Positions 35,881 to 39,176 of a stretch of DNA of 64,000 nucleotides are shown one piece after another. This stretch comes from a plasmid. The first letter of the stretch is position 1; each line of letters begins with the position of its first letter. Where the stretch lies: NCBI RefSeq assembly GCF_988243305.1, contig NZ_OZ547137.1. One strand, written 5' to 3'. A model generated the notes under the pieces. It was given only the letters and a program-made list of their open reading frames with translations, did no database searches and was not told the DNA's origin. The translations under genes and the position numbers were made by a program.

Positions 35881-35918
35881 GGGGTCTGAAGTCCAATGGA
35901 ACGAAAACGTACGTTAGT
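35881..35918. repeat. Tn3-family 38-bp terminal inverted repeat (left)
   Basis: GGGGTCTGAAGTCCAATGGAACGAAAACGTACGTTAGTG resembles the recalled Tn3 IR. Confidence 0.6.
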
Positions 35919-35924
35919 GAAGTC

Positions 35925-36045
35925 ACTGTCTGATATATCATAAATTATCAGACATATGAAAACAGTGCCGTTAATGTGTCTATTAAATCGATTTTTTATT
36001 ATAACAGACACTAGTTGTCCGATATTTGATTTAGGATACATTTTT
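35925..36045. promoter_or_regulatory. res: res site (resolvase binding region) of a Tn3-like element
   Basis: AT-rich region with repeated TGTCTGATA/TATCAGACA half-sites directly upstream of tnpR. Confidence 0.6.
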
Positions 36046-36603
36046 ATGCGACTTTTTGGTTACGCACGGGTATCAACCAGTCAGCAGTCTCTCGATATTC
36101 AGATCAAAGCGCTCAAAGATGCAGGTGTAAAAGCAAACCGTATCTTTACCGATAAGGCATCCGGCAGTTCTACAGACAGGGATGGGTTGGATCTGTTGCG
36201 GGTAAAAGTAGAAAAAGGTGATGTCATTCTGGTGAAGAAGCTCGACCGTCTTGGCCGCGATACCGCCGATATGATCCAACTGATAAAGGAATTTGACGCT
36301 CAGGGCGTCGCCGTCAGATTTATTGACGATGGGATCAGTACAGATGGTGATATGGGACAAATGGTGGTGACCATTCTGTCCGCAGTGGCACAAGCTGAAC
36401 GCCGGAGGATACTGGAGCGTACAAATGAAGGCCGACAGGATGCAAAAATGAAAGGTATTAAGTTTGGCCGTAAACGCTCAGTGGACAGAGGTTCTGTGCT
36501 GGCGTTGCACCAGAAAGGTACAGGAGCAACAGAAATTGCCCGTCAGTTAAGTATAGCCCGCTCTACGGTTTATAAAATTCTGGAAGAAGGGAAGGCAGAA
36601 TAG
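36046..36603 (+). CDS. tnpR: Tn3-type serine resolvase
   Basis: Start at [42 protein letters not shown]...; catalytic Ser motif and C-terminal HTH; very close to Tn3 TnpR as recalled. Confidence 0.9.
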
Positions 36604-36702
36604 GCCAATATTCACACAATTAACTAATATTTTCTACGCAATACGTGACACCTTTCGAGGAGAGGTGCTCGAAATTTCAGACATAAAAAGCCCCGTAGGG
36701 CC

Positions 36703-37104
36703 TTAGATGATTTCTTCCAATGCTGATTCCAGTTCTTTTACTTGCATTGCTCTAAGACGAGGAGCTAATGTTCGATGGGCGTTTAAGTAATCAATGGCTC
36801 TTGTTACCAGCTTTCCTCCGCCACAGACAACGAAATAACTCTGATGTTGTGTGTGTTGTGCATCAAGAACTGTGTGGCCTAGCTTCTCTATTGCGGTACC
36901 ACTCACTTCCTGCCATTTAGCCGTTATTTGAACGGTACCGGTATTAGTGAACAACAGGAAGTGGGCTATTTCATTCTTTCCCGCGATCAGACCAGGATAA
37001 CTGACATTTTTTTTAAACGTCATCGGAGCTTCTGAGTTACTTAGCTCAAAGCCTGCCCCAGAAATAATTGCTTCAATATCACGCAGTAATTCTGCTCTGG
37101 ACAT
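36703..37104 (-). CDS. Hypothetical cargo protein (133 aa) of the Tn3-like unit
   Basis: ORF convergent with tnpR; no family recognised. Confidence 0.5.
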   Translation of the reverse strand: MSRAELLRDIEAIISGAGFELSNSEAPMTFKKNVSYPGLIAGKNEIAHFLLFTNTGTVQITAKWQEVSGTAIEKLGHTVLDAQHTQHQSYFVVCGGGKLVTRAIDYLNAHRTLAPRLRAMQVKELESALEEII

Positions 37105-37207
37105 ACTTTCACCTTATCGTGTTGTATCTTTTTTGATCTTGGGGGGGAGGCAGAATTTTCAAGATGTAGGCGTTTTATTTTATGGTTAATAATCACCGCC
37201 ACTCTTA

Positions 37208-39082
37208 TGGTGAGAGATCGGGATAGGGGCTGATCTCACGATTAGCCTCCTCCCACACCACCGTACATACGGGTCCGTATACGGCAGTTCGGTTATGTTT
37301 ATCGTCGCCTGCCTATAACTCCGGTAGGCCCAGTCTGACGAACAGGCGATTGGGAAGTGCTATGCTCAGTGCCGGACTACAGCTTATCCGCCATTGCTTA
37401 TGGCAACTCCCTACCGTTTGCGCTGCAAGGTCTTTGCTTACTCCCCGTCTGCGCAACTCTTTGAAGCGCTTGCTGCCCGTTTTCCACTGTTTCCACAGGA
37501 CACTTCGCAACCTTCGCCTTATCCACCTGTTCAGATCTCTCATCAGCGTTTGCCACTGGTTCAGTCCATAGTAGCTTTTCCATCCCGTCAGATATCGCTT
37601 TAACGGTTCGATAAGCTGCTCTAGGCTTTTGCCCGTGTTACGCCCCGTCAGTTCTCTTATCCGGGTTTTGAACCGCTTCACCGATTCCGGCAACACCACA
37701 CACCACACCTTTCTGCCCCTCCTGAAGCTGTAACCCAGGAACTTACGCGTCTCCGGAAGCGCTACCGCGCTCTTCTTCGCGTTGAGCTTCAGCTTCAGTT
37801 TCCGGTTCAGCCAGTGCGTCAGCCCCGCCATCATACGGTTGCCTGCCCGTTCACTCTTCACATACACATTACAGTCGTCTGCGTAGCGGGCGAACTTCAG
37901 GCCGCGTTTCTCAAGTTCCTTATCGAAGTCATCCAGCAGCAGATTCGATAACAGTGGCGACAGTGGGCCGCCCTGCGGCGTCCCTTCTGTCACCGGCATT
38001 ACCAGACCCGCTTCCATCACACCTGCATTCAGGTACCCGCGGATAAGTGACAGCACCCGTTTATCCGATACTCGTTTCGCTATCCGGCTCATCAGTACAT
38101 CGTGATTCACCCGATCGAAGAACTTTTCCAGATCGAGGTCAACCCCCCAGCTGTAGCCCGACTCGATGTATTTCTGAGCCTGCTTCACTGCCTGATGCGC
38201 CGAGCGTCCGGGCCGGAACCCGTAGCTGCTGTCGCTGAACGTCGCATCCCACTGTGCCTGCAACACCTGCATCATCGCCTGCTGGATAAAGCGATCCACC
38301 ACCGTCGGGATGCCCAACAGACGTTCGCCGCCGCCGGGCTTCGGGATAGTCACTCTTCTTACAGGGGATGGGCGGTAGCTGCCGGACAGCAGTTGCGCTT
38401 TCAGTTCCGGCCAGTGGTGTCTCAGATAGTCCGGCAGTTCGCTTACGCTCATGCCGTCGGCTCCCGCCGCACCTTTATTGGCCTTCACTCTTTTCAGGGC
38501 ATGCCTGAGGTTGACTGGTTCGCAGATGGCTTCCATCAGCCACGCTGTTGACGATGGACTTTCTCTGGTCGTCGGTGCCTGCACGGTTTCAGCCCCCTGA
38601 GAACCGGCGTCAGGGGCTTCACCCCGTCTTCCTGCATCAGGGTCGCGATACGTTTTCTGCTGCATGACCGTTCAGAACCTCCGCTGATACTCGTCACTCA
38701 TTACCGTTCGGGCCTTCAGACGCGCCTGTCCTACTATGCCCTCTGCTGACTCCTGTCCGCCGGTCAGCGCACCTTACGGTACGCTCAGTTCTGAATACAG
38801 AACGCCAGACAGGCCTCCCGGGGTAAGCTCAGCCGCTTTCACCACACACCTGCCCAATCTACCACCCCGGCTCTTGATGGTTATGGCCTTTGCAATCAAT
38901 GGCTTGCTCCGCCAGCCGGGTAGGCCTCATATCGGATTTCTGTTCGTCAGGTCATGGTTTTGCTCCACGCTTCCTTCAGATCCCGCCTCACGACGGCACC
39001 CTTGCGCTTCACGAGTCCTTCGCCACCATCAGGCTGGACAGGGGACTTTCACCCCCGAGCTGCTGAGCATGCCCGGCACACC
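37208..39082 (-). mobile_element. Group II intron (about 1.9 kb), probably bacterial class C
   Basis: 5' GTGTG at 39082 (minus) directly after a terminator hairpin; RT ORF inside; domain V-like hairpin at about 37262-37295 and domain VI with bulged A at about 37210-37240. Confidence 0.7.
37313..38665 (-). CDS. Group II intron-encoded reverse transcriptase/maturase
   Basis: 450-aa ORF with RT motifs including YADD and a C-terminal maturase region. Confidence 0.9.
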   Translation of the reverse strand: MQQKTYRDPDAGRRGEAPDAGSQGAETVQAPTTRESPSSTAWLMEAICEPVNLRHALKRVKANKGAAGADGMSVSELPDYLRHHWPELKAQLLSGSYRPSPVRRVTIPKPGGGERLLGIPTVVDRFIQQAMMQVLQAQWDATFSDSSYGFRPGRSAHQAVKQAQKYIESGYSWGVDLDLEKFFDRVNHDVLMSRIAKRVSDKRVLSLIRGYLNAGVMEAGLVMPVTEGTPQGGPLSPLLSNLLLDDFDKELEKRGLKFARYADDCNVYVKSERAGNRMMAGLTHWLNRKLKLKLNAKKSAVALPETRKFLGYSFRRGRKVWCVVLPESVKRFKTRIRELTGRNTGKSLEQLIEPLKRYLTGWKSYYGLNQWQTLMRDLNRWIRRRLRSVLWKQWKTGSKRFKELRRRGVSKDLAAQTVGSCHKQWRISCSPALSIALPNRLFVRLGLPEL

Positions 39083-39138
39083 ATAAAAAAGCCCCCACGG
39101 GCTTTATTACTAAATTCAATACAAACAACAAATTATGC

Positions 39139-39176
39139 TCTTAACGTACGTTTTCGTTCCATTGGCCCTCAGCCCC
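39139..39176. repeat. Tn3-family 38-bp terminal inverted repeat (right)
   Basis: Reverse complement GGGGCTGAGGGCCAATGGAACGAAAACGTACGTTAAG, inverted relative to the IR at 35881. Confidence 0.55.

Follow-up and report, generated by a model that had tools for sequence, protein, structure and literature searches.

A transposase-less Tn3-family unit of a pAA-type plasmid as a probable IS101–ISEc63 chimera joined at res site I

How do two Tn3-type ends come to enclose a resolvase gene and its recombination site but no transposase? The question is raised by positions 35881–39177 of a 64,000-nucleotide stretch (the window) of plasmid contig NZ_OZ547137.1 (RefSeq assembly GCF_988243305.1), where two inverted repeats (IRs) surround a res site, a resolvase gene (tnpR), a gene for a protein of 133 amino acids (aa) and a group II intron. 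A preliminary description of this unit, made from the letters of the sequence, had taken it for a non-autonomous Tn3-derived element or a deletion derivative with unexplained cargo. It is indeed a Tn3-family derivative with genuine IRs that has lost tnpA, but it does not derive from a single element, since its left IR comes from IS101 and its right IR from ISEc63. We consider it very probable that the unit is a chimera of these two elements made by a resolvase, that it was formed in place and that the group II intron was added later.

Two parents and a junction at res site I

The repeat finder returned one strong inverted pair at 35881–35916 and 39142–39177, with arms of 36 nt that are 92% complementary and lie 3225 nt apart. 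Read at their full 38 bp, the IRs occupy 35881–35918 on the plus strand (GGGGTCTGAAGTCCAATGGAACGAAAACGTACGTTAGT) and 39140–39177 on the minus strand, the right one ending one base further out than first described. The left-arm pattern, searched with up to three mismatches, has exactly two sites in the window where 0.00 are expected (100 shuffles), and both ends conform to the GGGG...ACGAAAAC...TAAG type of autonomous Tn3-family transposons. By alignment the left IR is of the IS101 type, and comparison with ISEc63 and Tn1000 identifies the right IR as of the ISEc63/Tn1000 type, with two substitutions at positions 5–6 from the tip (GGGGGC vs GGGGTT). The left IR and that of ISEc63 match at only 33 of 36 positions. 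All the components reported earlier between the IRs are present, and the absence of a transposase holds as well: when the window was searched by tblastn with ISEc63 TnpA, no tnpA was found inside the unit, the sole match being a 38-aa remnant ~22 kb away. This remnant, at 61174–61287, belongs to a different Tn3-family transposase gene and is 79% identical to residues 700–737 of ISEc63 TnpA. As had also been noticed, there is no 5-bp target duplication at the unit, which is flanked by ATTCT on the left and by CTGGT or TGGTA on the right.

Without its intron the unit measures 1432 bp, and every part of this length is accounted for. Positions 45–1432 align to positions 3085–4473 of ISEc63 with 99.1% identity (99.1–99.4% for the right 1389 bp), and this segment spans the right half of res site I, sites II and III, tnpR, the 133-aa open reading frame (ORF), a hairpin and the right IR (IRR). 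The first 44 bp have no match in ISEc63 beyond IR-level similarity. A complete ISEc63 of exactly 4473 bp is found in pPSJ-22_1, with identical 38-bp IRs, a GATCT target duplication and a transposase annotated as 'Tn3-like element ISEc63 family transposase'; the order of its parts is left IR (IRL)–tnpA–res–tnpR–133-aa ORF–IRR. The unit does not have this full 4473-bp structure with tnpA, and lacks positions 1–3084, where ISEc63 has its IRL and tnpA and the left half-site I. On the other hand, it contains a group II intron, which none of the four intron-less right arms whose sequences we examined possesses (L002, L003, L012/L013). The intron-less segment of tnpR and the 133-aa gene occurs in many plasmids.

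Judged by its sequence, ISEc63 is closely related to Tn1000 (gamma-delta), of which we recovered a copy of 5981 bp from a K-12 genome (L021 3417–9397). The first 3605 bp of Tn1000 are 97.4% identical to ISEc63, the two transposases agree at 1001 of 1002 residues, the left IRs are the same and the res sites are laid out alike, whereas the right IRs differ at the innermost bases. The homology ends within tnpR, ~400 bp from its start, and beyond this the right arms are wholly different: the passenger of Tn1000 encodes a 698-aa Sll1717-family P-loop ATPase, that of ISEc63 the 133-aa protein of the PD-(D/E)XK superfamily.

The remaining left end is IS101. The left 59 bp of the unit, made up of the IRL, the left half of site I and 8 bp of spacer between them, agree at 56 of 59 positions with the published 209-bp IS101 sequence (Table S2 of PMC13367494), which we used as the reference, and at 58 of 59 with 209-bp isoforms. 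The spacer (GAAGTCAC) and the left half-site (TGTCTGATATATC) lie at 35919–35939 on the plus strand, and within this half-site ISEc63 departs from the window at three positions. IS101 is a Tn3-derived miniature element from pSC101 that is mobilised by the Tn1000 transposase and whose res is functional with the Tn1000 and Tn3 resolvases (PMC13367494, PMC4133298). Its 209-bp IR–res–IR structure is not preserved here; the unit holds only the left quarter of IS101, and the ISEc63 arm has taken the place of its right half-site I, sites II–III and right IR.

A 61-bp probe made of the IRL and half of site I matched at least 544 PLSDB records at a coverage of 80% or more, none of them annotated at this place. 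Of three such records examined, two contain a complete 209-bp IR–res–IR element and one a truncated element; another complete copy was found in L018. These complete and unannotated isoforms lie in IncF-type plasmids (L014 2001–2209, L015 2001–2209 and L018 4920–5128, the last on the minus strand) and are identical to the reference at 184–195 of 209 positions.

The two parents meet within res. Located by its half-site motifs, the complete res extends over 114 bp on the plus strand (35927–36040), with sites I, II and III of 28, 34 and 25 bp at 35927–35954, 35977–36010 and 36016–36040, respectively. The Tn3 res is likewise 114 bp long with three dimer-binding sites (PMC2602789). Just downstream lies an intact tnpR (36046–36603, plus strand), identified from the ORF list and by protein comparison, whose 185-aa product is identical to ISEc63 TnpR at 184 of 185 residues and to Tn1000 TnpR at 146 of 183. 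It carries the N-terminal serine motif YARVSTSQQ, and in public annotation it is a 'recombinase family protein'. The unit thus has what characterises a resolution module of the Tn3/gamma-delta type, a three-subsite res of 114 bp upstream of a serine resolvase gene. In a multiple alignment the window tracks IS101 through ...TGTCTGATATATCA and follows ISEc63 from TAAATTATCAGACA on. The last IS101-specific and the first ISEc63-specific base are ~5 bp apart, and the centre of site I, the AT at 35940–35941, lies between them. It is at the centre of site I that Tn3-family resolvases cut and exchange strands (PMC13367494, PMC7157771), and exchange there has already been invoked for the swapping of modules between Tn3-family transposons (PMC7157771, Fig. 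6). Since the switch falls on the resolvase cleavage dinucleotide, it points to a TnpR-catalysed res × res event as the one that removed tnpA.

Formation of the unit and the alternatives

The left flank gives the junction a history. Among the matches listed, ~30 plasmids share this flank up to exactly position 35880 and then diverge. In one of the relatives, p510016_80, the same flank is followed by an IS101 left end that is cut off after 55 bp, with no ISEc63 arm. The presence of an IS101 end beside this flank in a related plasmid that has no ISEc63 arm therefore indicates that the hybrid was formed in place. Rightwards of the empty site, pSARB26_03 continues with DNA that is not present in the window. 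The right junction, with an IS2 copy, is confined to the plasmid lineage of the window (15 PLSDB records), and two more hybrid copies from complete E. coli genomes have the same context as the window.

We propose the following course of events. An IS101-type miniature element (209 bp, IR–res–IR) would already have been resident in the backbone of a pAA-type plasmid when a copy of ISEc63 entered an IS2 of that replicon, such that its res and the res of IS101 were in direct orientation. An exchange by TnpR between the two, at the AT in the middle of site I, would then have deleted the interval between them, that is, the ISEc63 tnpA and IRL, the remainder of the IS2 and the right part of IS101. 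What remained would be the IS101 IRL, spacer and left half-site I, joined to the right half-site I, sites II–III, tnpR, PD-(D/E)XK ORF and IRR of ISEc63. Still later, retrohoming would have brought a terminator-targeting group II intron to a point 3 nt past the IRR-proximal hairpin of ISEc63. The lack of a 5-bp duplication is explained by this course, because the outer flanks would stem from two separate insertions.

Hybrids of the same kind are found elsewhere. A Salmonella plasmid, pCFSAN017963_01 (L002), has a 1434-bp IS101::ISEc63 hybrid that does not contain the intron; its left arm, of a different IS101 variant, agrees with the window at 55 of 59 positions and both its flanks differ. Three more hybrids, each of 1913 bp, join IS101 to a tnpR–blaTEM-1 arm: one in p15648-3, an O104:H4-type pAA plasmid, with a Tn2-type res–tnpR–blaTEM-1 arm (L019 1112–3024), and two between new flanks, in pBA92_2 with a Tn3-type arm (L020 3425–5337) and in p51489_1 with a Tn2-type arm (L024 3801–5713). 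In every one of the four the switch lies at the centre of site I. The left flank and left arm in p15648-3 are identical to those of the window, and an ISEc63 remnant and the IS2 junction persist further to the right; here the res site seems to have served for a second exchange. A second crossover of this kind in the O104:H4-type plasmids fits a res that has kept its activity. A search for a resident IS101 on the left side of the Salmonella hybrid was uninformative, the flank there being the end of an ISKra4-family insertion sequence. Plasmids of ~45 kb associated with KPC (H372–H387, for example NZ_CP003997.1 and NZ_OQ434669.1) match a probe made of the IS101 left arm and a Tn3-type res from position 24 at ~95% identity, and may hold further IS101-related res hybrids beside a recombinase gene.

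Could the transposase gene have been lost by a simple internal deletion within one copy of ISEc63 or of a Tn1000-like element? The right 1389 bp are ISEc63 and there are Tn3-type IRs at both ends, as such a deletion would leave them, and this was among the readings first put forward. We regard it as extremely unlikely, given that ISEc63 has the same IR sequence at both its ends while the left IR of the window differs and fits IS101, that the adjoining 8-bp spacer and left half-site I are of the IS101 type as well, and that the IRL of ISEc63 leads into tnpA sequence and not into res. By alignment, the loss of tnpA corresponds instead to a site-specific crossover between two res sites. Homologous recombination might have made the same junction without a resolvase, the two site I sequences being alike over ~25 bp, but the perfectly shared stretch at the junction amounts to only ~4–5 bp, which favours resolvase, and the switch lies at the resolvase cleavage dinucleotide in at least four hybrids, which between them involve three different partner transposons; we hold homologous recombination to be very improbable.

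It is also conceivable that the hybrid is an active non-autonomous transposon brought to its present site by the transposase of Tn1000 or ISEc63 acting in trans. Both types of IR are substrates, or near-copies of substrates, of Tn1000-type transposases (PMC13367494), the second IS101::ISEc63 hybrid lies between different flanks in the Salmonella plasmid, and TIME-RES offers a precedent that was captured during transposition (PMC4133298). The Salmonella hybrid, however, seems to have an origin of its own, as 4 of the 59 positions of its left arm are not those of the window. One plasmid that lacks the ISEc63 arm has the IS101 end next to the left flank of the window's unit, two substitutions have altered the tip of the right IR, and a 5-bp duplication is present in none of the five hybrid contexts (0/5). 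The window-type copies that were checked all occupy one site in pAA-type plasmids, so that the proposed movement as a non-autonomous transposon has left no sign. Arrival of the unit by transposition in trans is, in our judgement, improbable.

Several observations nevertheless weigh against formation by resolvase in place. The hybrids of pBA92_2 and p51489_1 have AA and not AT at the centre of site I, and their exchange point is uncertain by a few bases. The Tn3 and Tn1000 resolvases are reported to act only poorly on the IS101 res (PMC4133298). Three resident IS101 copies that we examined are without clean target duplications, and the history around them must therefore be more complicated than one event. 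Finally, PLSDB contains no plasmid in which this flank bears a complete IS101 and an IS2 bears a complete ISEc63; a complete ISEc63 at the same IS2 position is not found in PLSDB either, all 15 records with the right junction being of one lineage. As this predicted ancestor was not found, we infer, rather than observe, that the event was intramolecular, and its catalysis by TnpR is likewise inferred. What the sequences do show is the composition of the unit, the place of its junction, the IS101 end resident beside this flank and the late arrival of the intron.

Passenger gene, intron and surroundings

The gene for the 133-aa protein (36703–37104, minus strand) converges with tnpR, and a terminator-like hairpin lies between the two, just 3' of the former (36687–36704, minus strand). 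What had been called unexplained cargo is of ordinary provenance. The gene is present in the complete copy of ISEc63 and, as a regular passenger there, is not captured cargo; the intron is a later, terminator-targeting insertion. The family assignment called for earlier could be made: the protein matches Pfam PF20472 of the PD-(D/E)XK superfamily (E 2.1e-9). The AlphaFold2 model is confident, with a pLDDT (predicted local distance difference test) of 91.4, and gives a generic PD-(D/E)XK fold of the restriction-endonuclease-like alpha/beta type. Its top Foldseek matches in the PDB are the nuclease domains of Can2/Card1, AF1548, NucS/EndoMS and restriction enzymes, with a probability of up to 1.0, an E value of only 1.7e-3 and TM (template modelling) scores of 0.5–0.6.

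Residues K63, Q65, E66, E73 and K74 are invariant, and there is a conserved acidic residue at position 45. The textbook (D/E)xK motif was not found on strand 3 of the protein, and it is possible that an acidic residue is contributed by the following helix. The protein has no matches in NCBIfam, PADLOC or PHROGs and no meaningful sequence match in the PDB. Relatives with 47–60% identity are encoded on Vibrio and Alteromonas plasmids, outside transposons, and twice beside a WYL-domain regulator. At the 47%-identity homologues of the Alteromonas and Vibrio plasmids (L006 4400–6423, L007 4252–6423), a divergent WYL-domain regulator and a small hypothetical gene stand just upstream. Taken together, the 133-aa protein is probably a small nuclease.

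The boundaries of the intron follow from comparison with the empty site in the Salmonella hybrid (...GGGGGCTTTTTTATG | GTGTGCC...CCCGAT | CTCTCACC...), which gives an intron of 1865 nt on the minus strand (37217–39081), with the ends 5'-GUGUG...GAU-3'. The same comparison places it 3 nt after the hairpin and T-run of ISEc63 (39088–39105, minus strand), which hairpin analysis describes as terminator-like. The Rfam models of domains D1–D4 match with 137 bits (RF02001) and 54 bits (RF01998), and the D5/D6 model RF00029 with 38.7 bits against a gathering score of 40, its match ending exactly at 37217, the deduced 3' end. Within the intron an intact ORF of 450 aa (37313–38665, minus strand) encodes a reverse transcriptase (RT)/maturase (TIGR04416, E 3e-126), in which a profile search gave no sign of an endonuclease domain. 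On these sequence features, ribozyme domains, an RT/maturase and defined exon junctions, the segment qualifies as a group II intron. The RT ORF is intact in the window and broken in some sister plasmids.

The two hairpins of the ISEc63 right arm (36685–36705, AAAAAGCCCCGTAGGGCCTTA; 39086–39106, AAAAAGCCCCCACGGGCTTTA) are 81% alike, and only the IRR-proximal one carries the intron. Relatives of the intron in plasmids of Klebsiella quasipneumoniae (90% identity) and Providencia rettgeri (80%) lie 3–6 nt after a GC-rich hairpin with a T-run (L025, L026). All three copies, those of E. coli, K. quasipneumoniae and P. rettgeri, are thus placed just past a terminator-like hairpin, and targeting of this motif appears to be a family trait of these introns. 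Bacterial class C introns insert downstream of terminator-like hairpins; the insertion behaviour here is the same, and a class C label for the present intron would be one of behaviour only, not of phylogeny or RNA structure.

To the right, outside the unit, the IRR abuts a truncated IS3-family element, an IS2-like left end with the 5' part of orfA (39178 to ~39422, minus strand), identified from the ORF list and by a database match. This fragment, likewise reported before, has 98% identity with thousands of copies that bear the annotation IS3-family transposase, and we take it to be the left end of IS2 with the first ~60 codons of orfA. Just past it, at 39625–40796, is a complete-looking IS3-type element with a 102-aa orfA and a 288-aa orfB, and insertion sequences are piled up all along the stretch from the unit to aatD. 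The aat genes for dispersin export adjoin the region on its right. Over its full length the region is 99.6–99.9% identical to enteroaggregative E. coli plasmids of the pAA type; in p55989 an extra IS66-family insertion breaks the match.

Mobility, significance and known systems

The unit is incapable of self-transposition today. IS101 is mobilised by the Tn1000 transposase (PMC13367494, PMC4133298), to which that of ISEc63 is 99.9% identical, and because both types of IR are plausible substrates of the Tn1000 and ISEc63 transposases, mobilisation in trans is possible but unsupported; judged in this way, either enzyme might still move the unit. Most likely the unit serves its plasmid as a res/TnpR resolution module, one that would resolve multimers or cointegrates.

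The literature searched describes neither this pAA locus nor any hybrid of IS101 with ISEc63, Tn2 or Tn3. The components of the unit and the underlying reaction are nevertheless all known already, and since the 'orphan' transposon comes down to three mobile elements that are already catalogued and a single familiar reaction, no new category is needed for it. The wider picture is one of unannotated IS101 copies that are common on IncF and virulence plasmids and that repeatedly recombine at res with incoming transposons of the Tn3 subgroup. The products are tnpR cassettes without tnpA, some of them with blaTEM-1, which annotation pipelines label merely as 'recombinase family protein'. Recognition of such junctions helps in the reconstruction of plasmid histories, for instance of the 55989-type versus the O104:H4-type pAA plasmids.

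One may go further and ask whether resident IS101 copies act as recurrent res 'traps', in which the resolvase of an arriving ISEc63, Tn2 or Tn3 fuses the right arm of the newcomer to the left end of IS101 and leaves behind cassettes that are bounded by IRs, mobilisable in trans and stabilising for the plasmid. We put this forward tentatively, as a possibility that is on the whole doubtful. If true, arriving transposons would be stripped of tnpA and reduced to compact cassettes of res, tnpR and passenger gene, blaTEM-1 included, and this would be a general and hitherto undescribed path to non-autonomous resistance cassettes derived from Tn3-family elements.

The known system closest in composition is TIME-RES of Pseudomonas, in which a TIME (Tn3-derived inverted-repeat miniature element) is combined with the res–tnpR module of Tn5563 (PMC4133298). 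Like the unit, it has Tn3-type IRs, no transposase and a borrowed res and tnpR, and the unit shares this make-up in having a TIME-derived end, a res–tnpR module from an autonomous Tn3-family element and no tnpA. The two differ in their parent elements, host group and type of resolvase. TIME-RES has been seen to transpose with a 5-bp duplication (PMC4133298), whereas the unit shows no sign of movement. The unit, for its part, has an additional passenger ORF and an intron, and its junction can be placed at the crossover point of site I.

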